59,870 nt of DNA, taken from a virus. Its lineage: Duplodnaviria; Caudoviricetes. A model generated the notes under the pieces. That model was not told the origin of the DNA. It saw only the letters and a list, made by a program, of their open reading frames with translations, and ran no database searches. Location of the stretch: IMG/VR virus record IMGVR_UViG_3300009050_000003, positions 1-59,870 of that record. One strand, 5' to 3'. Position numbers and translations under genes: made by a program. Positions 11,139-55,323 of the stretch are shown here, one piece after another. The first letter of the stretch is position 1. Each line of letters starts with the position of its first letter.

Positions 11139-11156
11139 ATACCTGACCTTTAAGAT
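11138..11156 (+). promoter_or_regulatory. Phage RNAP promoter-like repeat (late class)
   Basis: AATACCTGACCTTTAAGAT; core repeated at 11261 and 55305. Confidence 0.75.
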
Positions 11157-16400: not shown

Positions 16401-17804
16401 ACAACTCAAAGAGATCGTAGACTTCGTGAGTTTCTTGAACACCCCCTTATTAGAGGCTTAGAAGGTCCAGAAGTACCAAAGATGGCTCGTATGGCACTTG
16501 AGTACGCTCGTATTCATAAGCATGTAGATGGTGATTTTAATAACCTTAAAAAGCTTAACACATACAAAACTCAGCTTATGATTGAGAACGATGCGTCGTC
16601 ATCAGGTGCTCAAATTATTGGATTGTCTACGGGCGATAGGGCTATTTCGGAAGCTTCTAATGTTCTTGCAACTACTCAGAAGAACCGTTTGTATGACCTT
16701 GTTGCTATGGATACTGTTAACGATCCAGAATTTTTGAAAATACCTGCCCTTAGAGATGCTAACCTAACTTGGGAAGATCTTGCTAAAGGTGCTAAGGCGC
16801 AAAACATGGTAAGCTTCTACGGTGCTGGCGATGCAACTAAAACCGCCAACGTAGCAGGTAAGCTGTCTAAAGTTCTTGAAGGTAAAGGTTATGTAACCGT
16901 TACTAAAGCTAATTTAAGTGAACAGCTTAGAATTATTGATGGTAAGATTAAAATTGCTCAAAAGCTTGATGCAGAAACTTCTGTAAAAGAGCTTCAGTCT
17001 TTCAGAGCAGAACTTGTTGATCTTATCAATAACAATGAACCTGCTGGTAGTACGCTTATGAAACAAGCTATTGAAGTTCATCCTGATACTGCTGCTTTTG
17101 TTGAAAAGCTTATGAACTCTCGAAAGGGCATTATTGGCCCTAAAGAGTTTGCAGAAGTATCTCGGATTATGTCTAAGAACCTTGCTGCTCGTGCGCCTGT
17201 TACAGATCAGTTTATTAACTTCTGGAAAGATGTGGCTAAGGCTTATGTAACAGAAACACAAAAGGTTGATATTCCGTGGGTTACATTCGACGGTAAAGTT
17301 ATGATGCAACGGTATAGACCCCGTTTGCAAGAACGTATTGAGTTTACTGACCCTGTTACGGGTCGTAAAGTATCTAACATCTATGAGGCAAAAGCTGAAG
17401 ACGGAAAACTTCTTGGGAAGTCTTCTTTGAATGACGCTCGTATTGGCCTAGGTGTTAATGGAAACCATAGTAACGATGCTGTTATTGTTAGACGATTCCA
17501 CTTGTGGGGACGTAAAAACGGTATTGGTACTGCAACAATTCATGACGCATTCTTCACTAATATTGGAGATGCTATGAAGGCAAAGGACGCTCTTAGAACC
17601 ATCTATGCAGATGCTCTTGGGGGCGATACTATAAGACGCACCTTGCAAGAAATGCGCAAGCAAGGCATGTCTTATAATACTTACTTAAAGCTTCTTGATG
17701 AAGCTAAGAGGAGAGGCTTAATTGACCCTCCAAATAAAATTACACGCCGTGACATTCTAGCTCCTATCGCTGATGGGTTTGACTGGTACGGTATTGGTCC
17801 ATAG
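13413..17804 (+). CDS. MuF (SPP1 gp7-like) minor head protein fused to a T7-like single-subunit RNA polymerase; putative virion RNAP
   Basis: N-terminal MuF motifs FTAILDARTSPIC...PPLHWNCRS (~14000-14125). C-terminal RNAP motifs DSRGRVY (~16161), ENDASSSGAQ (motif A), KAQNMVSFYG (motif B, Kx7YG), NGNHSNDA and TIHDAF (motif C). Located between portal and scaffold. Confidence 0.9.
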   Translation: MTTINDRIFDRIVDHMGDVRLYEEGVQLQNRRILQRHRKQLKDLLSEDIKADIKREMARFEKELLAHGVSSLKEFSTAQLDFHSDSLYKEVRSFYKVQRPSTKELLAEITGPNIKGAKDISTNIRNISSGELTRIQSKVKYGLARGMSQKDIIASVMKTTNLTENQVKTLTRTAITSTQSAALRNVAARNKGIVSGFMFTAILDARTSPICSYHNGKIYEVDDQRFVPPLHWNCRSSMVPVIKSKDQLLETDDARLKKRIVSNMDPQQLNGLPPVTLSFGEWLKRQTMEIQAKMLGSEDAANMFRQGKLKASEFITPKGKALTIQALRNRAANATTVFKPKQQVRSEGIRVQATTPNQLLNNPKHKEDLRQLFLLDASDYNQSLSLTDYKGTSLVGKQESRRRVGNQFDERNFSADPITGEVRNNNIYDPDFNLYQERLDFMRNSKLLSSEQKSFIENAVAGLDDKISVNQQTVMIENLRVVFERYAKDKMKWGDLTSVIRAENRFAVQNVSRLLDTRSRQRVDTFSKYLTDSKTDMPKIQIMGKYYDLDQLNEMYLKDTRFVDAWESTAGVNLARKAFFKGRAPIINYFRPILDQLPDRKTYIDRLLLRDTLLYKRYKQFKSLFKDKEPTDDWWIRNTARGRETIRSILDLEFLNLRKKPTTIVMNDKGTKALTSAAKLVASGDATDYDTLAINIGKMLSKEFEDLIPFMKNDLKSYHKEGSKFLDFMKDQGLIRIQFRGKTRRGVIDVETGRAGGAWGDTISREVTVINKDMLKLQEASRRMTIARRLGNVSDRDRLYVKAGKKTYFDARGKDTGVPIVSRDKFPDYDPKQIDSEMANMMNHVMNVEYSVDKEFFGFMDDIVRFRDPRGNSKYYDSINELRHEILNRGEAGYGLMATAKYHAIRGKNFKTYAFIDSRGRVYHRGYLTPTGGELVRPFLNSGKAVNIDAAAVYELRTQIGALIGPGTEALTQAGRQAIFGRNREKILDLGNLMMQTTQRDRRLREFLEHPLIRGLEGPEVPKMARMALEYARIHKHVDGDFNNLKKLNTYKTQLMIENDASSSGAQIIGLSTGDRAISEASNVLATTQKNRLYDLVAMDTVNDPEFLKIPALRDANLTWEDLAKGAKAQNMVSFYGAGDATKTANVAGKLSKVLEGKGYVTVTKANLSEQLRIIDGKIKIAQKLDAETSVKELQSFRAELVDLINNNEPAGSTLMKQAIEVHPDTAAFVEKLMNSRKGIIGPKEFAEVSRIMSKNLAARAPVTDQFINFWKDVAKAYVTETQKVDIPWVTFDGKVMMQRYRPRLQERIEFTDPVTGRKVSNIYEAKAEDGKLLGKSSLNDARIGLGVNGNHSNDAVIVRRFHLWGRKNGIGTATIHDAFFTNIGDAMKAKDALRTIYADALGGDTIRRTLQEMRKQGMSYNTYLKLLDEAKRRGLIDPPNKITRRDILAPIADGFDWYGIGP

Positions 17805-22906: not shown

Positions 22907-25900
22907 ATGAGTGGTGTAGAAATTAGAGTACGGTCTAATTCGCAACAGGCTCGACAGGATCTTGCAAGACTTGAGAAGTCCGTTGGTAATATCGATAAAA
23001 CCGTAAACAATGTAACTAAATCTATAGGCCGTTTAGCTGTCGGTCTTGGTGCTGCTTTTTCAGCACAACTAGCTATTAGAAATATTAACAAGTATACAGA
23101 TTCTCTTATCAATCTTGAAAACCGTATTGCCCTAGTTACAGGCCGTACGGAAGAGATGACACAAGTACTTGGTAAACTATATGAAATCTCTGCTCGTTCT
23201 AGAGGCTCTATTGATGGTGCTGCCGAGACGTTTAACCGTTTTGGTCGTTCGCTTCAAGGTACAGGGGCATCTACAGAACAATTACTTCAAGTAACAGAAG
23301 CCGTTCAAAAGAGTATTGCTATCTCTGGTTCTGGAGCTGAATCCGCTCGTGCAGCTATTTTCCAGTTGGGTCAAGGTTTGGCTTCTGGTCAGCTTCGCGG
23401 ACAAGAACTTAACTCCGTGCTTGAACAGGCTCCTCGACTTGCTCAGGCTATTGCGGATTCTATGGGGCAACCTCTCGGTAAACTTCGCGAGTTGGCTGAA
23501 GAAGGCAAGATTACAACTGATGTTGTGTTCAAAGGTCTTCTAAAACAAGCGGAAGCAATCAATAAAGAATTTGCAGATCTTGAAGGCACTACGGCACAAG
23601 CCTTTGAAGTATTTGGTGATTCTGTTGGTCGTGTAACTGGTGAAATCAGTAAGACACTAGGTTTCTCTTATTTATTCACTGATCAACTAAATAGAATGAG
23701 CACTTATCTTCGTGATAACGTTGGTCAGCTAAATAGTATGGCTTTCATACTCAGAGGTGATATTATCACTGGCTTTAGAGACTTTTCTCTTATTGCGGGT
23801 GGTGTTGCTAATGTTCTTGGTGCTTACTTTGGTCGCATTGGTGATGCTATTTATCAGCTTATTCTGCCTATGCGTACTGTTAGTGACCAGCTTAAGGCAA
23901 CGTTGCTATCTCCATTCTTAGAGGCTCGTCAAGAATATCTCAAAATTACAAACAAAATTGGCGATGACATGGCTGATTCTATGATGTCTGGTCTTCGTGG
24001 CAAAATCGGTAATGTTTTTAGAGCCGAAGGTCCAGAAGAAATTAGGGCAGCGCTAGATGATTTAGCTATGACGATTGACGGTTATGGTCGTCAATGGTTC
24101 AACTTTGGAAACCAAATTACGAACTTTATCAACCCTGCTTTTATTACTATTGAAAGGACTTTGGTTGGTTTGGGTATTCTAGATCAGCGATTGCTACGTT
24201 TCCGTAGTGGCTCTTTTGAAGATTTAAACTTTGTTATGGAATTAACAAATCTTATCATTAAAGATCTTGTTAAAAATATTAAAGCTCTAGAAGTTTGGAA
24301 TGATCTGGTTCTAGGTGCTTATATTGCTGCTCAACAAATTAATCGAGTTATGGGCGCAATAAAATCTGAAATTTCTATAGCTGTAAATAAGATCCAAAAG
24401 ACGCTTCAATCTATGTTTACAGGGGTTAAAGATATTGCTGAAAAGAACCTTGGTGCTGCATGGAAATCTGTTAAGGGGTATCTTGACTTAATTGAGCGTA
24501 AATTCTTCTGGCTTTACGACGAAGTTATTGCTAACTCTTGGTGGACTGACACTATGGAGCAAACTGCAGGTTTAGCACAATACTGGCTAGGTCGTGCTGA
24601 AGCCCGTGTACAAAGTTTTGGTAATACTATTAACTCTGTTTATAAAACAATTAGTAAAAGAGCAAGTGGCTTTAAAGAAGCACTTTCTAATTTGTTGCCC
24701 TCTGGTGGCGGTAGGAATATTCTTGAAATTGAGATTTCGACAAGTTCTATCAAAGAAACTGCAGTAACTCTTGTTAATACTGCTGTTAATTTTGGTCGTA
24801 CTATTTCTAGTGGTGCTGCCAATATGGTATCAGACCTATACAAGAAAATCAAAGAAATTGCCCCTGGTATTGGGTCGTATATTGCGTTTGCTGTTACTAC
24901 TGCAGTTGGTTCTGCTTTTGCACCCAAGCTTTTTGCTCCTCTGCTTAAACTTGAACTTATTGGTCTTGGTGCGATTATTGCAAATGAACTTGCAAGTAAC
25001 TTTGGACCTGCATTTATTTCATCTGGGTTTTTAGAAGACCTTGGTACAGGTATTGGTCGAGCCGCAGGAAACTTTGCAGCTGCCATTATTGAGAACATTC
25101 CTATGATTGTTCAAGGTCTTGTACAAGTTGTAAAAGGCTTTGGGAAGGGTGTTGCAGAAGCTTTTGGTGGTATTCCTGGATTTCTTCTAAGAACAATTAA
25201 CTCTATTCCTTTCTTTGGAGGGGATGGTCTTATCGTTGGTTTGATCTTTGGTACTGCAGGACTTTCTATCGTTAGCAAGAAATTCCGTGAACTTGCCTTT
25301 AATGTTATTCAACCTGCTCTTACTGGTATTATTAAGATGGCAGGTGTTGGCAGTGGTGCTAACTTGTTTGGTGCTGGTCAGGGTCTGGCTTCTCGAATTC
25401 TATTTGGTGGTACAGCAGACCCCAAGGCTGTTCTGACACGATTGACTTTCTTTACTGTCGGTGCAACAGCTTTGCTTTCGGGTATTCCTGACACATTGGG
25501 ACAAGGTATTGCACAGCTTGGTTTTGCTTATTTGACTATGTTTGGTACTCGTGGACCAACTGCGATTATTCAAGATTTGCAGAAAGTTGCAAATGTAGGC
25601 GGTAGTGCATTTAGCACAATTATGGCAGGTGGTTGGGGTACTCAACTAGGTGCAACAGCTGCAAAAGCCTTTAATGGTATTAGGTCTATGATGACTATGA
25701 CCAGCCGAGTAGGTGCTATTGAATCTGCTAAAATGTCAGCTTCTTATGTAGCTTCTTTTGCTCGTATTCGCGGCGCAGGTATTTCAAGTCTTGGCGCAGT
25801 TGTCAAGCGTTTTGGTAGAGTAGCACTTATTGCAGGTGCAGCACTTTATGCATTGACTGGAACTGCTGATGCAGCTTCAGAGGAAATGGGTGGTCTTGAA

Positions 25901-28900
25901 AGTACGATTTCAAAATACTCTGACGTAGGTATTATAGGTCTTTCTATCCTTGGGCCTATGCTTGGTGGACCTCTTATGAAGGCAGTTACTAAGGTTACAG
26001 GGTTTGTAGCTAAGTCTATCTCAGGACTTGTTTCAACCGCAGTAGCTACAGGTGCTCGCCTTGGTGGTGCTTTGTTTACAGGTATTATGGCAGGTGTAGG
26101 TAGCCTTGCAACCTCGATTGTTACAGCAATTACAGGTGCTTTTGCTGCAATATTCTCTATGGCGGGGGCTATTGTTGTTGGCGCAGTTGCAGCTATTGGT
26201 TTGCTTGGTGTATGGATCTTCGGCGAAGGTGATGGTTTCTTTGATAAACTAGGTAACGCTTATGACTCTGTTCGTAAATTCTTTGGCATGGCAGATCGTC
26301 GTACAAGAGACGCACGTAACGAACTCGAAGGTTTGTTTGATTTTGATCAGATTGGTGATATTAAGATTAACCTTGCTGCTGAACTTGCTAATGTTGATTT
26401 GTCTAGTATTTCTGACGATGATCTTGATCGTTTGATGCGAGTTAGCCGTGAAGCTAATCGTATCTTCGAAGAAGCTAATACAACACTTATGAATGAAGGT
26501 GAACTTAGTCGGGCTGAAACACGAAATGTTCAACGTGCAGTTTATGCTGTTCGTGATGAACTTCGTAGAGCACCAGCTGTTCCTGAAACAGAACGTGGAC
26601 GTAATCTTGGAGATAGCCTTAAAACTATTCTAGGTGGTATCGAGTTTATTGGTGGCCGTACTAGTCAAAGTCTAAATCCGTTTGGTGATGTTCTAACTGA
26701 ATCTGAACGTGCTGCCCTAACACGCGCTCAATCTCAGGCTGATGAAGGTCGTTTATCAGACGCTATTTCAACTATTCTCACTTCTGAGATGCGTCCAATG
26801 CTTGAAGAAAGTGACCAAGGTCGCGCACTTGTTGAATTGATGGGCCGATTGATGGGTGTATTGGATGCTGGTGCTTTGGATCGTATGAGCCAAGAAGAAT
26901 TCGTTACTTTCTCAGAAAGCGTTTCTGACTTCTCTCGTCTAATTAACCAATTTGGACGTGGTGTAGGATTTAACGAAGTTGGTGCGGGTGTACAAGCTTT
27001 TGGTCGTGGCGGTATTGGCAATGATACAGGTCTTGCAGGTGAGCTAGCGGGTATTCTTCAGACAGTTGCTCGTGAAAATGCTCGTCAAATCTTGCTTGAA
27101 CAGCGTCAAGCTAAGCTAACTAATGCAGAAGAAATTTTGACAAAAGTGGCAGATTTCGGTGTTGATATTGAACCTGAAGAACTTGCAAGACGATTTACAA
27201 ATGCGCAGCTAGATGCCTTTATTGAAGCGGGTAATAATCTGATAACCAATATGGATATCTTTGATCAAGCTCCAGAAACACTGGCTGGTTACACACAAGA
27301 ATATCTTGATCGTCTGAACCATAATGCAGAAATGTATGCTAACGTTCTGAATCATATTATTGAACAATCAGTTCCTCAAGAAACAACTGATGAAATTCAG
27401 AGCCGTCTTGAAGGCTTGCAGTCTCAGTTAGATTCTGTAGGTATCTCTGGTTCTCTTGCATTTGATCCTATGGTTGCTTCTGTTGCGGCTCTTAGCGAAG
27501 AAGCTATTTACCTTGGTGGTGAATACGAAAGAATGCAAGGCAAAATTAAGAGTATTTCTCGTCTACAAAGACAACTTCTTGAAGACGAGTCTCTTAGTGC
27601 GCAACAACGCAGAGACATTACTGTAGAAATTGGTCGTCAACGTCAGTCTCTTGAAACTATGGTTGAGCTTAACAACCTTGCTTATCGTATTGAAGCAGAC
27701 CGTGTTGGTTTGATTGAAGACGCTATGAGTTCGGTAGATAATGCAATGCCTCTGGAGCGTATTTTGGCTCTAGATGTTAGCACAATTAACAAGATTGTTG
27801 CTGCTTCTGCGGCTGTACAAACCTTGTCTCTACAACTTCAAAGTATTGGTGCCTCTGGTGCTGATGTTGATGTTGGTATTCGACGTACGCTTGAAAGACG
27901 TTTGCAGGAAAGCCAAGAATATCTTAACAGTGTAATGGGCGGTTTTAGTGGCAACGATGATAAGAGTGGCAAAACAGAAACCTTCTTGGAGAAACTTTCT
28001 TCTGGTTTGTCTTCTGCAGGGTTTAGTGCGTCTATTCAAGAAATCGGTGCGCTTTCTCAACGTCAAATTGATCAGTTGACTATTGCTGTTGGACGTTACA
28101 ACGATGCTCAAAAGGCATTGAATAACTCTGCACAGAGTGAGTCTGTTATTCGTGCTAATGCTCTTAGAACATTGGATGAGCAACGCGAGCGTATGGCAGA
28201 AATTCTTGCCAGCGGTACTATTCTGGGTATTCAGAAAGCACTAGAAGGTATGGGTTCTCAACTTGATATTGCATCTTTGGTTGGCCTTACACCTGAACGC
28301 TTCCAGTTTGCTGTTGAAAATAGTTTGCGTATTGCAGAACTTCGTAAGAACATTCTAGATACTGCGGGTACTGATCTTGCTCTGGCAAGAGAAATGAACC
28401 TAGAGCTTGAACGCCGTATGCAACTTGAACAAGGCATGACCGACACAGCACGTAGCTCTACAGATGCTATCGCTGAGTCTATCAAAAAGAACCTTGGTGA
28501 AGTTATCCGTGGTGCTCAAACACTTGGCGAAGGGATTATAGGTGTTCTTGATACTGTTACTGACCGTATTATTGACACTGTTCTTAATTCTTTTGTTGAC
28601 GCAATGTTCCAAGCCTCTGGTATGAAAGACATGTTTACAAACTTCTTTGCAGGTTTGTTTCAGTCTGGTCAGTCAATGGGTCAGAAACTAGGTCAAACCG
28701 TTGGTCAATCTATCACAGGTAGCCTTGAAGGTAGTATGACTGGTGGTGGCTGGATGTCTAACATTATGGGTTCTGTTGGTGGTCTGTTTAAGAACATCTT
28801 CGGTTTCCTTGGTGGAATGGGCGGCGGCGGCGGTATGTTTAGCAGCCTATTTGGATTGAGCTTTGGCTCTTTCTTAGGGTTTAGCGAGGGCGGTATCGTA

Positions 28901-29146
28901 CCAATGATGGCAGGTGCTAAAGCTGGTGTAGACTCTGTTCCTGCAATGCTAACTCCTGGCGAAGTCATCTTGAGTACTGATCAAGTTAAAGCACTTGGTA
29001 AAGGCTCTAATGCAGGTAATAGTCAAGTATTTAATTTGAATATTACTGGAGATGTATCTCGTCAAACACGCAAAGAAATCGTCAAGTTGATGCCTCAGAT
29101 TACTCAAGGTGTTAACACCAATAACAAAGAAAATAATAGACGATAA
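22907..29146 (+). CDS. Tape measure protein (2079 aa)
   Basis: Tape-measure N-domain (AIFQLGQGLASGQLRGQELNSVLEQAP), Gly/Ala hydrophobic stretches, and C-terminal FSEGGIV...DSVPAMLTPGE. Confidence 0.92.
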   Translation: MSGVEIRVRSNSQQARQDLARLEKSVGNIDKTVNNVTKSIGRLAVGLGAAFSAQLAIRNINKYTDSLINLENRIALVTGRTEEMTQVLGKLYEISARSRGSIDGAAETFNRFGRSLQGTGASTEQLLQVTEAVQKSIAISGSGAESARAAIFQLGQGLASGQLRGQELNSVLEQAPRLAQAIADSMGQPLGKLRELAEEGKITTDVVFKGLLKQAEAINKEFADLEGTTAQAFEVFGDSVGRVTGEISKTLGFSYLFTDQLNRMSTYLRDNVGQLNSMAFILRGDIITGFRDFSLIAGGVANVLGAYFGRIGDAIYQLILPMRTVSDQLKATLLSPFLEARQEYLKITNKIGDDMADSMMSGLRGKIGNVFRAEGPEEIRAALDDLAMTIDGYGRQWFNFGNQITNFINPAFITIERTLVGLGILDQRLLRFRSGSFEDLNFVMELTNLIIKDLVKNIKALEVWNDLVLGAYIAAQQINRVMGAIKSEISIAVNKIQKTLQSMFTGVKDIAEKNLGAAWKSVKGYLDLIERKFFWLYDEVIANSWWTDTMEQTAGLAQYWLGRAEARVQSFGNTINSVYKTISKRASGFKEALSNLLPSGGGRNILEIEISTSSIKETAVTLVNTAVNFGRTISSGAANMVSDLYKKIKEIAPGIGSYIAFAVTTAVGSAFAPKLFAPLLKLELIGLGAIIANELASNFGPAFISSGFLEDLGTGIGRAAGNFAAAIIENIPMIVQGLVQVVKGFGKGVAEAFGGIPGFLLRTINSIPFFGGDGLIVGLIFGTAGLSIVSKKFRELAFNVIQPALTGIIKMAGVGSGANLFGAGQGLASRILFGGTADPKAVLTRLTFFTVGATALLSGIPDTLGQGIAQLGFAYLTMFGTRGPTAIIQDLQKVANVGGSAFSTIMAGGWGTQLGATAAKAFNGIRSMMTMTSRVGAIESAKMSASYVASFARIRGAGISSLGAVVKRFGRVALIAGAALYALTGTADAASEEMGGLESTISKYSDVGIIGLSILGPMLGGPLMKAVTKVTGFVAKSISGLVSTAVATGARLGGALFTGIMAGVGSLATSIVTAITGAFAAIFSMAGAIVVGAVAAIGLLGVWIFGEGDGFFDKLGNAYDSVRKFFGMADRRTRDARNELEGLFDFDQIGDIKINLAAELANVDLSSISDDDLDRLMRVSREANRIFEEANTTLMNEGELSRAETRNVQRAVYAVRDELRRAPAVPETERGRNLGDSLKTILGGIEFIGGRTSQSLNPFGDVLTESERAALTRAQSQADEGRLSDAISTILTSEMRPMLEESDQGRALVELMGRLMGVLDAGALDRMSQEEFVTFSESVSDFSRLINQFGRGVGFNEVGAGVQAFGRGGIGNDTGLAGELAGILQTVARENARQILLEQRQAKLTNAEEILTKVADFGVDIEPEELARRFTNAQLDAFIEAGNNLITNMDIFDQAPETLAGYTQEYLDRLNHNAEMYANVLNHIIEQSVPQETTDEIQSRLEGLQSQLDSVGISGSLAFDPMVASVAALSEEAIYLGGEYERMQGKIKSISRLQRQLLEDESLSAQQRRDITVEIGRQRQSLETMVELNNLAYRIEADRVGLIEDAMSSVDNAMPLERILALDVSTINKIVAASAAVQTLSLQLQSIGASGADVDVGIRRTLERRLQESQEYLNSVMGGFSGNDDKSGKTETFLEKLSSGLSSAGFSASIQEIGALSQRQIDQLTIAVGRYNDAQKALNNSAQSESVIRANALRTLDEQRERMAEILASGTILGIQKALEGMGSQLDIASLVGLTPERFQFAVENSLRIAELRKNILDTAGTDLALAREMNLELERRMQLEQGMTDTARSSTDAIAESIKKNLGEVIRGAQTLGEGIIGVLDTVTDRIIDTVLNSFVDAMFQASGMKDMFTNFFAGLFQSGQSMGQKLGQTVGQSITGSLEGSMTGGGWMSNIMGSVGGLFKNIFGFLGGMGGGGGMFSSLFGLSFGSFLGFSEGGIVPMMAGAKAGVDSVPAMLTPGEVILSTDQVKALGKGSNAGNSQVFNLNITGDVSRQTRKEIVKLMPQITQGVNTNNKENNRR

Positions 29147-29157
29147 ACAACTTTTTG

Positions 29158-29183
29158 GGTCGCCCTTCGGGGCGGCCTTTTTT
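29158..29183 (+). terminator. Intrinsic terminator ending the late operon
   Basis: GGTCGCCC-TTCG-GGGCGGCC-TTTTTT. Confidence 0.85.
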
Positions 29184-29226
29184 ACCAAAACAGTCAGCTA
29201 ATTTTGCCCAAAAAAAGCCCAAAAAA

Positions 29227-29253
29227 AAGTGAGAAAATTAACGCATCTATAAT
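29227..29253 (+). promoter_or_regulatory. Early promoter-like motif, copy 1
   Basis: AAGTGAGAAAA-TTAAC-GCATCTATAAT; same blocks and spacing as at 31495. Confidence 0.65.
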
Positions 29254-29282
29254 AGAAGAAATCCAAATAGAGGAGAAACCAA

Positions 29283-29456
29283 ATGGAACTTCTGATCGTC
29301 ATTATCGCTATCGCTGGCTGGGCTGCTATCGGTAAAATGACTTACGACATGGCTAATTACCAAGACCGCAACCCGTGGGTCTGGGCAATTCTTGCTGTGT
29401 TGTTTGGGCCACTAGTAATGGCCTATGTATTTTACAACGGTAAATACAAATACTAA
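29283..29456 (+). CDS. Small 2-TM membrane protein (57 aa), first early gene, not in the ORF track
   Basis: GAGGAG RBS; MELLIVIIAIAGWAAIGKMTYDMANYQDRNPWVWAILAVLFGPLVMAYVFYNGKYKY. Confidence 0.7.
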   Translation: MELLIVIIAIAGWAAIGKMTYDMANYQDRNPWVWAILAVLFGPLVMAYVFYNGKYKY

Positions 29457-29524
29457 AAGCTTTGGGGTGTGCTTTAAACACCCTAATCAACCTTCATCCA
29501 AGTGGAATCCAAGAGGAATATAAA

Positions 29525-29758
29525 ATGAAGACTATCACAAACATCATCAAAATCGTAATCGTAATTGCTCTGTTTGCTATTCTTGCAGTATTGGCGAATA
29601 TCGTTGTTAGCGGTTTGACCGCTTTGTTCGGTATCGTTGCAATCATTGCATCTGGCATCTGGACCGTAATCTTTTACGTTACTATGACCTATATCTCGCT
29701 TAAGATTGTAGGTGCAATTGTAGAGTTTGCTATTATCAAGAAGATATTCGCAAAATAA
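29525..29758 (+). CDS. Membrane protein
   Basis: GAGGA RBS; almost entirely hydrophobic. Confidence 0.7.
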   Translation: MKTITNIIKIVIVIALFAILAVLANIVVSGLTALFGIVAIIASGIWTVIFYVTMTYISLKIVGAIVEFAIIKKIFAK

Positions 29759-29776
29759 TAGCTGACCTTAAAGCCC
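29757..29776 (+). promoter_or_regulatory. Variant of the phage RNAP promoter motif
   Basis: AATAGCTGACCTTAAAGCCC; 17 nt identical to 38092-38108. Confidence 0.5.
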
Positions 29777-29824
29777 TAGAGACTCCCTCCCTGTCTTTAG
29801 GGCTAAACTTAAAGGAAACTTTAA

Positions 29825-30106
29825 ATGACAATACTAGGCATCTTCTTAGCCGTTCTAATTGGTCTATTGATTAGATCAATCATCTCTAAAAAGTTATGGG
29901 GAAACAAAATCTATCGAACACCTTGGTGGGTAATTGTTTCTTTCTTTATTCTTTCTGGAACCTATATGCCAAGTGCTATATTTGGTTTAATGGGTTTGTT
30001 TATGTACGACATGATAAGCTATGCTGTACCTAGCGACAATGCATCTAGAAAGATAATTAAAGGTATCCATGAACATCTAACAAAAGGAATCAAAGCCAAT
30101 GCTTAA
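29825..30106 (+). CDS. Membrane protein
   Basis: Three hydrophobic segments; AAGGA RBS. Confidence 0.7.
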   Translation: MTILGIFLAVLIGLLIRSIISKKLWGNKIYRTPWWVIVSFFILSGTYMPSAIFGLMGLFMYDMISYAVPSDNASRKIIKGIHEHLTKGIKANA

Positions 30107-30305
30107 GAATATTGCAAGTGGGTTTGGAAAGGGTATCGGTGAGTCTTTTAACATTGTTAAAGACGTAACCAATGTAATATCTGAATATCTCCGTAGTGAG
30201 AAAGGCCAACACTTTATGGCTAAACACTTTGAAGTAATTTATGAAGAAACTCAACCTTATGAAGAAGTGTTGATGGAAGCTCTAAACGAAATGAAAGGAA
30301 AGTAA
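30099..30305 (+). CDS. Hypothetical protein
   Basis: ORF with RBS in the early region. Confidence 0.6.
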   Translation: MLKNIASGFGKGIGESFNIVKDVTNVISEYLRSEKGQHFMAKHFEVIYEETQPYEEVLMEALNEMKGK

Positions 30306-30306
30306 A

Positions 30307-30528
30307 ATGCTACGTGGTGCTGTTGATAAGAACATCATGCATAATCTTTGCAATCAAGCAGAGGTGGCACAAATTAACCGTAATAATCCGTTCTATGTTG
30401 GAACTGTAAAAGGTTATAAATTCTACGAATGCCCAATCTATGGGGATGAGCGCCCGTTGCTCGTTAAAGACAAACTTGGTCGCTATGGTTATAGCTACTG
30501 GTGTGACCTTCCTGAAGGAGAAATCTAA
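30307..30528 (+). CDS. Hypothetical protein
   Basis: ORF with RBS; FYECPIYGDERPLL. Confidence 0.6.
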   Translation: MLRGAVDKNIMHNLCNQAEVAQINRNNPFYVGTVKGYKFYECPIYGDERPLLVKDKLGRYGYSYWCDLPEGEI

Positions 30529-30653
30529 TGAACTACGAAGACCAACTGCAGTATGAGAATGATGATTACGAGTATTACAGATGGCTTACGAGTGTAAATC
30601 CGTTTTTTGTTGTAGACGCTGAATATCAAATCAAAGGAATGGAGATTCTCTAA
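30528..30653 (+). CDS. Small acidic hypothetical protein (41 aa)
   Basis: AAGGAG RBS; TAATG overlaps with neighbouring genes at both ends. Confidence 0.5.
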   Translation: MNYEDQLQYENDDYEYYRWLTSVNPFFVVDAEYQIKGMEIL

Positions 30654-31036
30654 TGATGACTGCTGCTATGTGTCTTGCATTAAATATGTTTTTTGAAGCA
30701 AGAAATGAGTCATTGATTGGGCAAGTAATGGTAGCTGAAGTAACTCTAAATAGAGTAGTAGATGCGAGATTCCCTGATACAGTCTGTGAAGTCGTCTGGC
30801 AAGATAAACAATTTAGCTGGACACATGACGGTAAAACAGATAATCCTAATAAACTGCCCCATGTTGATCGTGAGGCTTGGAGATGGATAAAGGTACTAGC
30901 CGATATACTTCTCGAAGAACCAGAGTACCTAACTAAAACAGGTGCTTTGTACTATCATGCCGAGTATGTTAACCCGTACTGGACAGACCACTATGAACGT
31001 GTTGCTGTTGAAGGCACACATATCTTTTACAAGTAA
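30653..31036 (+). CDS. Cell wall hydrolase (SleB/Hydrolase_2)
   Basis: CLALNMFFEARNE, VTLNRV, FPDTVCEVVWQ..QFSW, GALYYHA.YV.PYW and HIFYK motifs. Confidence 0.9.
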   Translation: MMTAAMCLALNMFFEARNESLIGQVMVAEVTLNRVVDARFPDTVCEVVWQDKQFSWTHDGKTDNPNKLPHVDREAWRWIKVLADILLEEPEYLTKTGALYYHAEYVNPYWTDHYERVAVEGTHIFYK

Positions 31037-31047
31037 GGACAAATCAA

Positions 31048-31500
31048 ATGAAAAACATCGTAATCGCCTTGGCTTCAATTTTCTTTGCTACCTCTGCTAT
31101 TGCAGGTCAAGAGTATGAATGTAAGAAAAGTTTTCTTGGATGCTATACAACTTATGTAGGAACTAAAACTTCTGCGGATGTAATTGAATACGTTAAAGAT
31201 TCAGAGGAGGCTGTTCAAGAAGTTACATCAACTTACAAGCTGGAAGAAGTAATCTATCAACCAAAAGAAGGTATTCTTGTTATCAAAACCACTAAGGAAA
31301 ACTGGATGCCAAATTTTAGTGAAGTAAAAGCTATGTTTCGAGATCGAAACCTATACTTGAAAACTATCGTATTTACCTGGCCAGGTTCTTATGATGTACG
31401 TAAAGTAATGAACTTCGATGACAATCATAAAGGCAGAGTACGTTACTTAGCCCTTAAGGAAATCAAAGCACCATCTGAAAATATTCTCACAAAGAAGTGA
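31048..31500 (+). CDS. Exported hypothetical protein
   Basis: Signal-peptide-like MKNIVIALASIFFATSAIA. Confidence 0.65.
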   Translation: MKNIVIALASIFFATSAIAGQEYECKKSFLGCYTTYVGTKTSADVIEYVKDSEEAVQEVTSTYKLEEVIYQPKEGILVIKTTKENWMPNFSEVKAMFRDRNLYLKTIVFTWPGSYDVRKVMNFDDNHKGRVRYLALKEIKAPSENILTKK

Positions 31501-31521
31501 GAAAAACAAAGCATCTATAAT
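31495..31521 (+). promoter_or_regulatory. Early promoter-like motif, copy 2
   Basis: AAGTGAGAAAA-ACAAA-GCATCTATAAT. Confidence 0.65.
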
Positions 31522-31548
31522 GAACAGATCAAAATAGGAGATGATATC

Positions 31549-31704
31549 ATGTTCAATGCAAACGTAAAATTCTGGAACTTTGACGCTAACAAAATGGAAG
31601 TTGTTTCTGCTTCTGGAACCACTCGTGAAAAGGCTATTTCTAATTGCTTTCAGAAAGCAAAGAAAATGGGCTTGTCGTATAATGACATGATTTCGGTGGA
31701 GTAA
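31549..31704 (+). CDS. Small hypothetical protein (51 aa), not in the ORF track
   Basis: AGGAG RBS; MFNANVKFWNFDANKMEVVSASG... Confidence 0.6.
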   Translation: MFNANVKFWNFDANKMEVVSASGTTREKAISNCFQKAKKMGLSYNDMISVE

Positions 31705-31705
31705 A

Positions 31706-31879
31706 TTGTTGACTAAGTTCACAAAAGAGTACCTCGAAGAGATTAGCTTTTCTAACCTTGTAAAAGCAATCGATGCAAAATGGGGTCATACTTATATTGA
31801 CCCACCACTAACACTTGAAGATGAAATCAAGGCTATTCTTGACGAATTCGATCCTAAACTCAACAGCCAACATAAATAA
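31706..31879 (+). CDS. Small hypothetical protein
   Basis: TTG start after GGAG; open frame fills the gap between genes. Confidence 0.4.
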   Translation: MLTKFTKEYLEEISFSNLVKAIDAKWGHTYIDPPLTLEDEIKAILDEFDPKLNSQHK

Positions 31880-31890
31880 GGAGATCTCTT

Positions 31891-32127
31891 ATGGCTCGTA
31901 ACATTAAAGCACTAAAGACTGGTTTCAACTACGAACTGACTCAAGGTCGTCCTTGGAGCAGCCGAAACAAAGCTTACAATCATGGCGATCGTATTGCTAT
32001 GGTTGGACAAATTCTTGCTGGCACATACACAATTGCTGAAGCAGCTGATGAAATGGGTGTTGTTAAACAGACTATTAAAAATTGGCTTGCAACAGCCGAT
32101 AAGGATAATCCCCGCCTAATGGGATAA
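31891..32127 (+). CDS. Helix-turn-helix DNA-binding protein
   Basis: TIAEAADEMGVVKQTIKNWL. Confidence 0.8.
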   Translation: MARNIKALKTGFNYELTQGRPWSSRNKAYNHGDRIAMVGQILAGTYTIAEAADEMGVVKQTIKNWLATADKDNPRLMG

Positions 32128-32131
32128 CACA

Positions 32132-32184
32132 GTTCTCCTCGCCCCACTTGGGGGCGGGGAACCCTTCCTTCTTTTTTTTTTTTT
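32132..32184 (+). terminator. Intrinsic terminator upstream of the RNAP gene
   Basis: GC hairpin CTCGCCCC-ACTT-GGGGGCGGGG, followed by a 13-T run. Confidence 0.7.
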
Positions 32185-32320
32185 CAGTATAGGAGATATA
32201 TTATACTAGGTCTGTTAGCAATGATTTATCTGATGATATTCAAAGGTAACAAGACTCTTAACTAAGTTCTGAAGTAAATGGGGTACGCATTGTACTATGC
32301 CCATAATGAAAGGAAGCTAA

Positions 32321-34492
32321 ATGTCTGAAGCCACAGTACTTGATAGATTAGTCGAAGATCTAGCGTATCGAATGAGCGTATTAGATAAACGTCAATCAGC
32401 AAGTTACTTGAATACACTAAGTCCGAGAGATATTATTGAGTTCTCATATACACATGTTCTCAAAGGTCTTGAAAGAAAAGCTACACTAGTGGAAGTAGCT
32501 GCTAGTATAGGTCGTAGACTTCGTCAGAAGCTTCGAATGAAACAAGACAGTATTCTTGATGTTCAAGGTGGTTGGTATGTTCTTATTTCATATATTGAGA
32601 CAGGAATTATCGGCTATCGAAAAAAGCATGTTTACAAAAATGGCAAAAAGTCTAAGCATCTTACGTTTCAGCTTTATGCAAGAGATTGGTCAGCCATTAA
32701 AGACATGATGGACCTAATTGATAACGAAAAGACAGACTTATTTCCAGTTAATACTCCTCCAAAACCGTGGACTAACAAATCTATTCACGAGGAAACTGGA
32801 ATTAGTATCATTAAGAAAGGTGACGAGAGTGCTTTAAAACACATGGAAAACTCAGACACAAGTTATATTGTAGATGTGCTTAATAAGCTATCTAATACAG
32901 CTTGGCGTATTAACGAAAGAGTTTTTGAAGTATACAAAGCTTGTATGACAATGAAAGAAAACCCGTTCAAATTCTCTAAAGAGATCGATCCTGTAAAACG
33001 GGCTTCCTTGATTATTGAAACAGAGGCTATCCAGCGGCTTGCAGAGAAGAACCTGAATAAGCCGTTTTATCATCTGTATAACCTTGACTTCCGAGGCCGT
33101 ATTTACCCTAACACTGCCTTCTTACACGAGCAGTCTAGTGACAATGCGAAAGGTATCCTTTTACTAGAGGAGCCTGTGCCATTAGGTCAGGACGGTTATT
33201 ACTGGTTGTCAGTCCATACTTCAAACATGTGGGGTAATGATAAAGTATCTTTAGACGATCGTGCAGAGTGGGTTCAAGAAAACTTAGACGAAATTCTAAG
33301 TTATGCAAATGACCCTCTTAACAATTTAGGGTGGATGAAAGCAGATAAACCATTTTGCTTTCTTGCTTGTTGTTGTGAAATTGATATGATTAGTAACTGG
33401 CATGGTGATGGTTTTAACACTGAAGACTTTCCAAGCTGCTTGCCAATCTACATCGATGGGTCTAACAACGGTGTTCAACATCTTGTAGCAATGTCTAAAG
33501 ATGATGAAGTTGCACCACTTGTAAACTTAACACCTAGTGACCTTCCTGGTGATGTATATATGTTTATTGCAGAACATGTATGGAAGCGTATCGAGCAAAT
33601 GTATAATGAGCTTGATAAAGACACCATCAATAAGTTTGACGATGTGTTTAACACAGCACTCAAGCTGCAACGAGAGTATGAGAATGCTCCTGATAAGTCT
33701 GAAAGAAAGAAACTTGCTTTTCAGGCAGTACAGACTTATCGAAATCATAACAGAGATCTTCGTGAGAAACTTTTTCCTGTATATTGGCATAATATTCAGG
33801 ATAAAAAAGTACAACGAAAAACTGTTAAACGCAATGTAATGACACTTGGCTACGGTGGCACAGCCTACGGCATGGGTCAACAAGTTAACGAAGATACAAG
33901 GGATATCAATGATTACTTGAGAGACAAAGAGCATTTGTGGGGTAATATGCTAGGTAAACTAGTATATGAAACCTGCTATGAAGAGCTTAAAGGACCAGCC
34001 CGTATGCTAAGGCTGTTCCAGACTCTTGCAGACAGAGCCAATGAGAAGGGGGTTTATCTCTCCTATATCACCCCTATCACAAACTTCCCTGTTGTGCAGG
34101 CGTACAAGACTGCGGCTACTAAGCGTACAGAACTTAAGTATGGTGACGACATCATGAAAGTTCGTATTCAAGTTTGGGAAGACTGTACTGTAAACGAGAG
34201 TAAACAAAGAACAGGTGCAGCACCAAATATTGTACATAGTCTTGACGCTGTTCATTTAACTATGGTTGTACATGATGCACCTTTTACTGTAACTGTTGTT
34301 CATGATTCTTTCGGATGTCACGCAGGAAACATGAACTATATGTTTCATCATGTTCGCAACAAGTTTGTAGAACTTTATGAATCTAACCCTCTAGAATGTA
34401 TTCTAGAACAACTTGAGTCCACAGACCTTATTCCAGAGAAAGGAAAACTTAATGTCAACTCTGTATACCTCTCAGACTTTGCGTTCGCTTAA
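32321..34492 (+). CDS. T7-like single-subunit DNA-directed RNA polymerase (723 aa)
   Basis: DFRGRIY, DGSNNGVQH (motif A), RKTVKRNVMTLGYG (motif B), APNIVHSLD, VHDSFG (motif C) and C-terminal SDFAFA. Confidence 0.95.
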   Translation: MSEATVLDRLVEDLAYRMSVLDKRQSASYLNTLSPRDIIEFSYTHVLKGLERKATLVEVAASIGRRLRQKLRMKQDSILDVQGGWYVLISYIETGIIGYRKKHVYKNGKKSKHLTFQLYARDWSAIKDMMDLIDNEKTDLFPVNTPPKPWTNKSIHEETGISIIKKGDESALKHMENSDTSYIVDVLNKLSNTAWRINERVFEVYKACMTMKENPFKFSKEIDPVKRASLIIETEAIQRLAEKNLNKPFYHLYNLDFRGRIYPNTAFLHEQSSDNAKGILLLEEPVPLGQDGYYWLSVHTSNMWGNDKVSLDDRAEWVQENLDEILSYANDPLNNLGWMKADKPFCFLACCCEIDMISNWHGDGFNTEDFPSCLPIYIDGSNNGVQHLVAMSKDDEVAPLVNLTPSDLPGDVYMFIAEHVWKRIEQMYNELDKDTINKFDDVFNTALKLQREYENAPDKSERKKLAFQAVQTYRNHNRDLREKLFPVYWHNIQDKKVQRKTVKRNVMTLGYGGTAYGMGQQVNEDTRDINDYLRDKEHLWGNMLGKLVYETCYEELKGPARMLRLFQTLADRANEKGVYLSYITPITNFPVVQAYKTAATKRTELKYGDDIMKVRIQVWEDCTVNESKQRTGAAPNIVHSLDAVHLTMVVHDAPFTVTVVHDSFGCHAGNMNYMFHHVRNKFVELYESNPLECILEQLESTDLIPEKGKLNVNSVYLSDFAFA

Positions 34493-34691: not shown

Positions 34692-34737
34692 ATACCTGAC
34701 CTTAAAGATCTACTGTCAATACCTGACCTTAAAGATC
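34692..34737 (+). promoter_or_regulatory. Tandem phage RNAP promoter-like repeats (middle class)
   Basis: ATACCTGACCTTAAAGATC twice (34692 and 34719), directly upstream of the SSB gene. Confidence 0.8.
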
Positions 34738-35385: not shown

Positions 35386-35823
35386 ATGAAAGAACATGTA
35401 TACCTTGCAGGACCAATGGAAGACTGCACAAAAGAACATATGACATACTGGCGTGTAACAGCATGGCAAATGTTAGATATGGCGGGTGTAAAAGCTCTAG
35501 ACCCTACACGCCGTGTATCATTTCATGATCAACTACAAGAACACTTGCAAGACGTTACAAAGACCATGAACACCTGTAAGCGTATCTTTAAGCAAGACCT
35601 ACATGACATTGCATCAAGCCGTGTTGTGTTAGCAGATGTACGGCGTTCTTCTGGGCGCGGTACAGGCACTTCTATGGAATTGATGTTTGCTCATATGAAG
35701 AATAAAATCATCATTCTATGGGCTGATGAAGGTGATCTTATTCATCCTTTCTATGAAGCAATGGCGACAGAAAAACACTACAGCTTAGAGGATGCTGTTT
35801 ATGCAGCACTGGAGTACTACTAA
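35386..35823 (+). CDS. Nucleoside 2'-deoxyribosyltransferase / dNMP hydrolase-like protein
   Basis: VYLAGPM, DL..IASSRVVLA and GTSMELMFA motifs. Confidence 0.8.
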   Translation: MKEHVYLAGPMEDCTKEHMTYWRVTAWQMLDMAGVKALDPTRRVSFHDQLQEHLQDVTKTMNTCKRIFKQDLHDIASSRVVLADVRRSSGRGTGTSMELMFAHMKNKIIILWADEGDLIHPFYEAMATEKHYSLEDAVYAALEYY

Positions 35824-37959: not shown

Positions 37960-38137
37960 AGATCTTAAGAATGACTGGGAATTGCTAGACGACTACTACG
38001 AGGAACGTGCAGCTATACTGGAGTATGATGCAGGGTATTCCCGATATGAAGCTGAAAACTTAGCTGCACAAATGTACGGCTTTGATAACAAAGCTGACCT
38101 TAAAGCCCATATCCAAAAATTAAAAGCAGGAGCGTAA
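37952..38137 (+). CDS. Hypothetical protein
   Basis: GAGGAG RBS; YEERAAILEYDAG.SR.EAE motif. Confidence 0.65.
   Translation: MLKDLKNDWELLDDYYEERAAILEYDAGYSRYEAENLAAQMYGFDNKADLKAHIQKLKAGA
38092..38108 (+). promoter_or_regulatory. Variant phage promoter motif inside a gene end
   Basis: AGCTGACCTTAAAGCCC, identical to 29760-29776. Confidence 0.4.
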
Positions 38138-43722: not shown

Positions 43723-44201
43723 TGCCTAATTGGTGTATGAACAGCGTAACTATCGCAGGAACTAAAGAAAAGCTAGAGCTTCTAGTAGAAGCTTGTAAGA
43801 ATGATAAGCTTTTGGAAACATTAAATCCTATTGGAGAATGGGATTACGGCAAAGCTTGTGAAGCTTGGGGTACTAAGTGGGAAGTTCGAGAGGTTGACTG
43901 GGATATGGACTACGATAACCTTGAACTAACTCTTAACTTCGACAGTGCTTGGGGGCCACCCACAGTAGCGTATGCTGAAGGTGAACTTCTACACAATCTA
44001 GAAATCAGAGCAACCTATTTTGAACCTGGTATGATGTTTGTAGGTATGTACGAAGATCGTGAAGATCAGTCTTGGAGTATTGATTTTGAAGACGAAGACT
44101 GGAAAGACAATCTACCAGAAGAACTTATTTCGGATTGGGGATTGGATTACGAGTATGATAGTTGGAAAGAGTATCAAGAAGAAGATGAAATGAATGGATA
44201 A
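43722..44201 (+). CDS. DUF1281/Api92-like ferredoxin-fold protein
   Basis: MPNWCMN, WGTKWE, FDSAWGPP and YFEPGM motifs. Confidence 0.75.
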   Translation: MPNWCMNSVTIAGTKEKLELLVEACKNDKLLETLNPIGEWDYGKACEAWGTKWEVREVDWDMDYDNLELTLNFDSAWGPPTVAYAEGELLHNLEIRATYFEPGMMFVGMYEDREDQSWSIDFEDEDWKDNLPEELISDWGLDYEYDSWKEYQEEDEMNG

Positions 44202-44637
44202 ATGGGATAGGATGTATATGAGGATGGCTTTTATTGCTGCCTCAGAAAGTCATGCAAGGAAAAGAAAAGTTGGCGCAATAGCAGTAAAGGAAAACAATGT
44301 TATCGGAATCGGTATTAACGGCACTCCTTCTGGTTGGCATTCTAATAAGTGTGAAGATTTAGACAACAAGACGTATCCATACGTTCTTCATGCTGAAACG
44401 AATATGATCAGCAAAGTAGCAAAATCAAGTATCTCCAGTCTTGGGGCTACTTGTTACACAACAACAGCTCCTTGTTTAGATTGTGCAAAATCAATCTATC
44501 AAGCAGGGTTTTCTAAAGTAGTCTATCACACAAACTACAAGAACACTGAAGGTATCGATTTCCTGAGAATGATGAGTGTAGAAGTCATTGAAATAGATTA
44601 CGAAAAAATACCTGACCTTAAAGACCAAAACCCATAG
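44194..44637 (+). CDS. dCMP deaminase
   Basis: KVGAI, NGTPSG, HAETN and PCLDC motifs. Confidence 0.9.
   Translation: MDKWDRMYMRMAFIAASESHARKRKVGAIAVKENNVIGIGINGTPSGWHSNKCEDLDNKTYPYVLHAETNMISKVAKSSISSLGATCYTTTAPCLDCAKSIYQAGFSKVVYHTNYKNTEGIDFLRMMSVEVIEIDYEKIPDLKDQNP
44607..44624 (+). promoter_or_regulatory. Phage RNAP promoter-like repeat (middle class)
   Basis: AATACCTGACCTTAAAGA, upstream of the exonuclease gene. Confidence 0.75.
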
Positions 44638-55304: not shown

Positions 55305-55323
55305 AATACCTGACCTTTAAGAT
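55305..55323 (+). promoter_or_regulatory. Phage RNAP promoter-like repeat (late class), upstream of the structured RNA and terminase
   Basis: AATACCTGACCTTTAAGAT. Confidence 0.78.

Follow-up and report, generated by a model that had tools for sequence, protein, structure and literature searches.

A conserved early promoter motif in Naomviridae-like phages and a MuF-fused polymerase as its candidate reader

Which RNA polymerase (RNAP) reads the early promoters of a phage that encodes two polymerases of its own is the question raised by the marine Caudoviricetes record IMGVR_UViG_3300009050_000003. The window analysed here is this whole IMG/VR virus record, 59,870 bases long and approximately 90% complete; its plausible genes all share one strand. 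A motif containing TATAAT occurs twice in the window, between the late operon and the gene of a free T7-like RNAP. The original prediction read this motif either as the promoter of a virion RNAP, a MuF head protein fused to a single-subunit RNAP (MuF-RNAP), or as an unusual host-RNAP promoter. Comparison with related phages argues that the motif is a genuine early promoter, conserved across a phage family. Its reader is very probably a phage polymerase, for which the virion fusion enzyme is the best candidate. The family-wide consensus of the promoter, its two forms, and the predicted start site are new here. Literature searches on DSS3_VP1, DSS3_PM1, Naomviridae, and MuF virion RNA polymerase (supplements not covered) found no description of this promoter or of the role of the fusion. 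PMC8323127 (Rihtman et al. 2021) contains 0 mentions of 'RNA polymerase' and 1 mention of 'promoter', concerning an intron.

The early motif in the window and across related phages

The pattern AAGTGAGAAAA-N5-GCATCTATAAT (27 bases) is found at exactly two sites in the window, 29227–29253 and 31495–31521, both on the + strand and with identical blocks and spacing; there is no third site in the window with up to 3 mismatches, and none appeared in 100 dinucleotide-preserving shuffles. The predicted early promoter copy 1 (29221–29253, + strand) consists of an A-tract (29221–29228), GTGAGA (29229–29234), eight further bases, GCATC (29243–29247), and TATAAT (29248–29253), with the conserved element reaching 5' beyond the 27-base pattern into the A-tract. 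The predicted copy 2 (31497–31521, + strand) comprises GTGAGA (31497–31502), GCATC (31511–31515), and TATAAT (31516–31521), and overlaps the stop codon (TGA, 31498–31500) of the preceding open reading frame (ORF; 31048–31500). Copy 1 begins 49 bases past the stem of a terminator-like GC hairpin with a T run (29157–29186, stem 29157–29178, + strand), which closes the tape-measure gene (22907–29146, 2079 codons) and thereby ends the late operon. The sequence of this hairpin is conserved in relatives immediately 5' of the first promoter copy, with ...tcgggg.ggcc-ttttttatcaaaa standing before many of the copies. Similar leaders, ATCCAAATAGAGGAG and ATCAAAATAGGAG, stand 3' of copies 1 and 2, and each leads to a small gene with a GGAG ribosome site: a hydrophobic protein of 57 amino acids (29283–29456, + strand), 29 nucleotides after copy 1 and with homologs in 8 motif loci, and a protein of 51 amino acids (31549–31704, + strand), 27 nucleotides after copy 2. 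The two sites, the similar leaders with their small genes, and the position of copy 1 right after the late-operon terminator had all been claimed in the original prediction and were borne out.

Among named phages, the window, a Naomviridae-like siphovirus, is closest to the roseophages DSS3_VP1 and DSS3_PM1 (Naomviridae), with 61.6% identity in the fusion protein. When IMG/VR was scanned with a pattern of 20 specified bases, 74 stretches matched, DSS3_VP1 among them and many holding 2–4 copies; together with the window they contain 115 exact copies. The copies of DSS3_VP1, at 35795 and 36242, lie directly 3' of the tape-measure terminator, before gp096 and gp095. Homologs of window proteins are encoded in 73 of the 75 motif loci, the other two being pieces of 1.4 and 2.6 kb. 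The same 20-base pattern matched once in 185,579 prokaryote genomes, on a contig with neither the flanking features nor family genes, and this single match is about the chance expectation for that amount of DNA. The original prediction had also proposed a motif search in relatives that carry the fusion. To avoid circularity, relatives were gathered independently of the motif, through the free RNAP, which gave 38 family loci at 49–75% identity. All 21 loci with at least 3.8 kb of upstream DNA carry one to five copies of the generalised motif 5' of the RNAP gene, as does 1 of the 17 loci with less. The census counted 66 copies, 65 of them upstream and one downstream of the free RNAP gene, and none on the opposite strand. 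The motif copies are intergenic, and a start codon with a ribosome site follows 160 of the 165 distinct copies at a median distance of 42 nucleotides.

The consensus consists of an A-tract of about six bases, [G/C]TGAGA, eight mostly A/T bases, GCATC, TATAAT, and a purine, with approximately 33 bp conserved and a high information content from the A-tract through TATAAT into the first bases beyond. Among 174 distinct copies, the hexamer is a perfect TATAAT in 157 and TATAAC in 10 (TATAAC or TATAGC in 12); the base after it is G in 159 and A in 15, and the next base is usually A. Minor variants comprise CTGAGA, CCGAGA, GTGAGATTTTT, TATAGT, and TATAAC, and in eight loci, from five contigs, every copy has TATAAC. 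A diverged clade uses a second form with the same spacing, [G/C]TGGGG-N8-CCCTC-TATAA[T/C]-GAAGAAA, and the polymerases of these relatives are only approximately 46–51% identical to those of the window. A scan for the CCCTC form found 47 stretches, 33 of them in family contigs with the A-tract and GAAGAAA; the other 14 have neither feature and look like chance matches of the 16-base pattern. Beside the hexamer, each clade keeps its GCATC or CCCTC block with almost no variation, and the switch of this block from one clade to the other goes together with the change from GTGAGA to GTGGGG. In CCCTC-form copies (loci L102, L104, L109, L112, and L161-L204), the G run of GTGGGG can pair with the C run of CCCTC, so that the pairing between the two blocks reaches 3–6 bp, compared with 2–3 bp in the GCATC form. 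This pairing recalls the hairpin promoters of phage N4, and it may be functional or a by-product of the base changes.

Analysis of the sequences that follow GCATCTATA[A/G]T, counting perfect stems of at least 4 bp with loops of 3–8 nucleotides, revealed a perfect hairpin starting exactly at the first base after the hexamer in 71 of the 111 distinct downstream sequences; a hairpin starts elsewhere in 8 and is absent from 32. Shuffled controls gave a hairpin at that base in 38 of 2220 sequences, and with loops of up to 12 nucleotides allowed, 81 of 114 distinct copies have one. The third stem pair is T-A in 68 and A-T in 13 sequences, the fourth is A-T in 68, G-C in 9, and C-G in 4, and the fifth is C-G in 45, T-A in 15, A-T in 12, and G-C in 3. 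The mean folding energy of the downstream sequences is -3.4 kcal/mol, compared with -0.5 kcal/mol in the shuffles. RNAalifold on 26 of the downstream sequences returned no structure, MAFFT having aligned the variable loops without gaps, and explicit stem counting was used instead. The spacing of the palindrome half-sites varies from 3 to 12 nucleotides and the stem covaries; because the loop length varies and the changes compensate each other, a nucleic-acid hairpin fits better than a protein operator. As a stem-loop at the 5' terminus of the transcript, it would place the transcription start at its first base, and a sigma-70 start 6–8 nucleotides further on would fall inside the loop. Since the two copies in the window have no hairpin of their own, their starts are predicted by homology at the purine after TATAAT, A 29254 and G 31522, in agreement with the approximate positions 29255 and 31525 of the original prediction; in DSS3_VP1, the corresponding G after TATAAT is found at record positions 35820 and 36267.

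Two phage polymerases and a second motif

The MuF-RNAP gene (13413–17804, + strand) sits between portal and head genes and encodes a protein of 1463 amino acids, in which a MuF head protein (PF04233, 2.3e-14) is fused to a divergent single-subunit RNAP (PF00940, 27.3 bits at a cut-off of 22); the fusion family comprises 251 clusters. The motifs DxRGRVY, NDASSSGAQ, K-x7-YG, and IHDAF, which we take to be the palm and fingers motifs of T7 RNAP, are invariant in 25 aligned fusion members. Among solved structures, the AlphaFold model of fusion residues 560–1463 (predicted local distance difference test 81.4, predicted template modelling score 0.76) is most similar to T7 RNAP and mitochondrial RNAPs (2.6e-19, TM ~0.5), and a phmmer search of the fusion against chains of the Protein Data Bank (PDB) gave no match at E <= 1. 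Because of the invariant polymerase motifs and the T7-like predicted fold, the fusion is a credible candidate for an active polymerase. The free T7-like single-subunit RNAP (32321–34492, + strand; 723 amino acids) is encoded downstream of both promoter copies and matches PF00940 at 4e-84 and T7 RNAP at 7.6e-62. Similarity between the fusion and the free RNAP is weak (BLASTP E 0.63, hhalign probability 1.3), with motifs A, C, and DxRGRVY lining up. EBPR siphovirus 1, whose fusion is approximately 30% identical, is a partial record, and its first 50 kb contain neither a free RNAP homolog nor a similar motif.

A second motif, TACCTGACCTTWAAGA, is read as the promoter of the free RNAP of the window. 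It forms a tandem pair, TACCTGACCTTAAAGA (34693–34736, + strand), directly 3' of the free RNAP gene, with further copies starting at 11140, 11263, 44609, and 55307, and these sites precede replication and late genes. Relatives at 70–75% identity have TACCTGACGTTAAAGAAC at the same place, in 14 of the 39 loci scanned. In DSS3_VP1 (L077, 2250–46559), 11 copies of AATAGG[G/T]T[G/A]CGTTAAAGAGGGGG precede late and replication genes, with one weak variant in the early region; this element has the same layout as TACCTGACCTTWAAGA with a different inner block and is probably the promoter of the DSS3_VP1 free RNAP. Phages with a common early motif can thus differ in their second motif. The original prediction had called the early motif unrelated to the TACCTGACCTT motif, and the comparative evidence likewise sets the two apart. 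Copies of the second motif, such as that at 55307 and those of relatives, are also followed by hairpins, whose first base is the G that follows TTAAA or TTTAA. In the early region, the second motif has no exact copy, only one-mismatch variants (at 29759 in the window and 38541 in DSS3_VP1). The window has such variants at 29759–29774 and 38094–38106; the former falls among the early genes, after the second small gene and before the third, where it could allow the free RNAP to boost early transcription.

The small gene after copy 2 is followed by ORFs 31706–31879 and 31891–32127, the latter with weak helix-turn-helix matches below Pfam cut-offs. A terminator-like GC hairpin with T13 (32140–32186, + strand), visible in 8 of 10 aligned sequences, separates the small early genes from the free RNAP gene. 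Apart from this hairpin and a small ORF, the alignment upstream of the free RNAP gene contains no other conserved signal. The tiny hydrophobic ORF after the hairpin (within 32140–32320) seems to have no ATG start in the window. A nested stem element (GGGGTAC..GTAC..CCC) stands just before the RNAP start codon, and its outer stem differs among relatives and stays complementary. Rfam gave no match within 29000–32400, and a near-identity search of the phage collection with 28000–33000 gave none either.

Several side observations concern the same genes and leaders. In many relatives, a conserved leader CCAAGTGGAA(A/T)(C/T)CAAGAGGA is found between the promoter hairpin and the start codon; the window has it at 29496–29519, before the second small gene (start 29525) and without a promoter copy, and it may be a translation or processing signal. 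The fusion gene is interrupted in relatives G004, G007, G008, G015, G016, and G020, where it is in two or three pieces separated by gaps of hundreds of bases, with an in-frame TGA in G007 and G016. In G002 and G006 it is the free RNAP that is split in two, and an HNH endonuclease gene lies inside the fusion of EBPR siphovirus 1 (L078). From their sequences, these polymerase gene interruptions look like introns, inteins, or homing-endonuclease insertions. In L104 / L107 (6958–7333), an early ORF is composed of GCTGCT-rich tandem repeats of 9–12 bases, which encode Ala/Asp/Trp-rich repeats.

Candidate readers of the early motif

We infer the reader, the start site, packaging, and delivery from sequence, in the following scheme. 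MuF-RNAP would be packaged in the head through its MuF part and enter the cell with the DNA, both steps being proposed because MuF fusions are known to act as ejected proteins (discussed in PMC5512222). It would bind the promoter as a duplex, with GCATC (-11 to -7) conferring specificity and TATAAT (-6 to -1) melting, and would begin transcription at the next purine (29254 and 31522). Its transcripts would cover the small early genes and, in the fraction that reads past the hairpin at 32140–32186, the free RNAP gene as well; the free T7-like RNAP would then serve the rest of the genome from TACCTGACCTTWAAGA promoters. The core of this scheme, an early promoter read as a duplex by a phage single-subunit RNAP with T7-like geometry, the MuF-fused polymerase being its most likely reader, is the account we favour, with somewhat better than even confidence.

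The case for MuF-RNAP as the reader is made by elimination and by a correlation of loop conservation. The loops compared were assigned by position, at an offset to the T7 numbering. At residues 597–615, which correspond in position to the T7 specificity loop, the free RNAPs of the window and DSS3_VP1 are 26% identical (whole proteins, 56%); the figure is 74% for a relative whose second motif is nearly that of the window (whole proteins, 75%). In the fusion, a predicted beta-hairpin between motifs B and C (residues 1299–1325) is 74–89% identical among nine GCATC-form phages, compared with 59–71% for the whole proteins. Its tip is TGRK-like, with R, in all nine GCATC phages, and TGEK or TDQK in all four CCCTC-form loci (three distinct sequences). 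This double loop pattern is suggestive of a pairing of the fusion with the early motif and of the free RNAP with the second motif. Of the original claim of a virion-RNAP promoter, the early promoter is thus upheld, the motif being conserved, strand-specific, intergenic, and upstream of the free RNAP gene; the virion RNAP as its probable reader is reached through elimination and the loop correlation.

A number of observations weigh against this assignment. The loop correlation is essentially one phylogenetic split, with loops assigned by position only, and one contig (seen as L112 and L165) has GCATC and CCCTC forms side by side, which weakens a strict one-loop-one-sequence reading. Neither the hairpin nor TATAAC is present in the window's own two copies. 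The terminator-like hairpin before the free RNAP gene requires read-through by the proposed early transcription. The early motif is approximately 33 bp long, compared with 23 bp for T7-type promoters, and has an extra A-tract and GTGAGA. The two polymerases occur together in 11 of 17 long records, the records without one of them being 38–71% complete; because both occur in every reasonably complete record, presence or absence cannot separate them.

The co-occurrence of the two enzymes would also suit an account in which the free RNAP (32321–34492) reads the motif as a second class of promoter, with the first transcripts of its gene coming from weak host promoters or from the virion enzyme at unrecognised sites. 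The free enzyme is a typical T7-like RNAP and the architecture of the motif is T7-like, both of which fit this account. The fusion is nevertheless favoured over the free RNAP because the gene of the latter lies downstream of the motif copies, with no other conserved signal before it. Moreover, divergence in the putative specificity loop of the free RNAP tracks the second motif and not the early one, and on this account the fused polymerase would be left without any conserved promoter. We regard the free RNAP as an improbable reader of the early motif. A reading without any promoter, in which a regulator binds the motif or longer transcripts carry it as a signal for RNA processing or stability, could draw on the conserved leader and hairpin after many copies and on the overlap of copy 2 with a coding end. 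Against it, copy 1 and many copies of relatives stand directly after the late-operon terminator-like hairpin, the strand bias is strict, and the distance to start codons is fixed. Conservation is also strongest on the 5' side of the hairpin, where the DNA finishes with an AT-rich block and a purine, like known single-subunit RNAP promoters. This reading appears very improbable.

If the motif were instead an unusual host promoter, the sigma-70 holoenzyme would use TATAAT as the -10 hexamer and start 6–8 nucleotides further on; the A-tract and GTGAGA would be UP-like or factor-binding elements, and the palindrome an operator. Like bacterial sigma-70 promoters, the motif has an A-rich upstream region, and the early genes of many phages use host RNAP. 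That TATAAT is the sigma-70 optimum and is perfect in 157 of the 174 distinct copies is a further point against a phage reader. A -35 element is missing, as the original prediction had noted: no TTGACA-like hexamer stands 16–18 bp 5' of either TATAAT in the window, where the hexamers are AAAAGT and AGAAGT, and a sigma-70 scan lists neither TATAAT as a second hexamer. The last T and the second A of the -10 hexamer are the two bases flipped out by sigma, the last T is one of the two most critical bases, and TATAAC is fixed in five contigs. The GCATC/CCCTC block beside the hexamer is near-invariant per clade and switched between clades, and the flanks are conserved beyond the reach of sigma-70. 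The hairpin starts directly after the hexamer, and its variable spacing of 3–12 nucleotides with a covarying stem points to a hairpin rather than an operator. The motif is also absent from the 185,579 prokaryote genomes except for the one chance-level match. Because of the missing -35, the fixed TATAAC, the clade-switching blocks, and the hairpin position, sigma-70 is disfavoured, and the unusual host-RNAP promoter that the original prediction had kept as its alternative becomes unlikely. A six-frame search of the window found no Sigma70_r2 or Sigma70_r4 domain. Readings of the sigma-54 and sigma-32 type were dropped because, judged by eye, the spacings do not fit their consensus sequences.

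Returning to MuF-RNAP as the reader, a bolder version of the scheme can be formulated, which we hold to be less likely than not: the injected enzyme would read the duplex promoter of approximately 33 bp and, together with the free RNAP, would make the whole transcription programme independent of host RNAP and rifampicin-resistant; the hexamer would be read as UAUAAU in DNA containing deoxyuridine (dU); and the arginine at the tip of the fusion hairpin (1299–1325) would read the G of GCATC. The DNA of DSS3_VP1 has dU in place of deoxythymidine according to PMC8323127. The window has a deoxycytidine monophosphate deaminase gene (44194–44637) among its replication genes (family A DNA polymerase, primase-helicase, and ribonucleotide reductase), as does DSS3_VP1; by analogy, uracil-containing DNA is possible in this phage.

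Comparison with known systems and biological significance

Comparison with T7/T3/SP6-type promoters (Autographiviridae) revealed a similar overall design, with one contiguous conserved block, an AT-rich melting segment, and then a purine start. The 5-base block occupies the place of the T7 specificity region and varies between clades, and many transcripts would begin with a stem-loop, again as in T7-type systems. The proposed reader differs, being a fusion to a head protein that has a T7-like predicted fold and no phmmer match in the PDB at E <= 1.

In coliphage N4, transcription passes from the virion RNAP gp50 to RNAPII and then to the host RNAP. The scheme proposed here is similar in that a packaged single-subunit RNAP would transcribe early genes, including those for the second phage polymerase. 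The early promoters of N4 are DNA hairpins (5–7 bp stem, 3-nucleotide loop) upstream of the start, whereas the GCATC form, including both window copies, has no such hairpin, the best stem between the blocks being 2–3 bp. The carrier also differs, being here a MuF fusion in a long-tailed phage, and no role of host RNAP is evident. More generally, a feature of virion-RNAP relays (N4, P23-45, and AR9) is found here, namely early promoters upstream of a second polymerase gene that has its own promoter class; packaging is in this case suggested by the genes alone, that is, by the MuF fusion and its position between portal and head genes. In the Thermus phage P23-45, a tape-measure-fused virion RNAP transcribes the pre-early genes, including the gene of a second, non-virion RNAP, as described in bioRxiv 10.1101/2022.12.01.518664 / PMC10770324. 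P23-45 resembles the window in having a polymerase fused to a virion structural protein and the gene of a second phage RNAP among the targets, which is proposed here from sequence; it differs in its two-barrel RNAPs and tape-measure carrier, since both enzymes of the window are T7-like and the carrier is MuF.

The consensus, the predicted starts, and the natural variants (GCATC and CCCTC, TATAAT and TATAAC) are exact enough to be testable in cultured DSS3_VP1/Ruegeria. If correct, the proposal would add a compact new polymerase-promoter pair to the toolbox of single-subunit RNAPs, and would offer a case for studying promoter search by a packaged polymerase on DNA that may contain uracil. Naomviridae-like phages are widespread in marine samples and include roseophages with dU-DNA. 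If the promoter reader is the packaged RNAP, such a phage may switch itself on without the host enzyme, and the Naomviridae-like phages would transcribe their genes in two defined steps with two T7-like enzymes, one of which is carried by a head protein.

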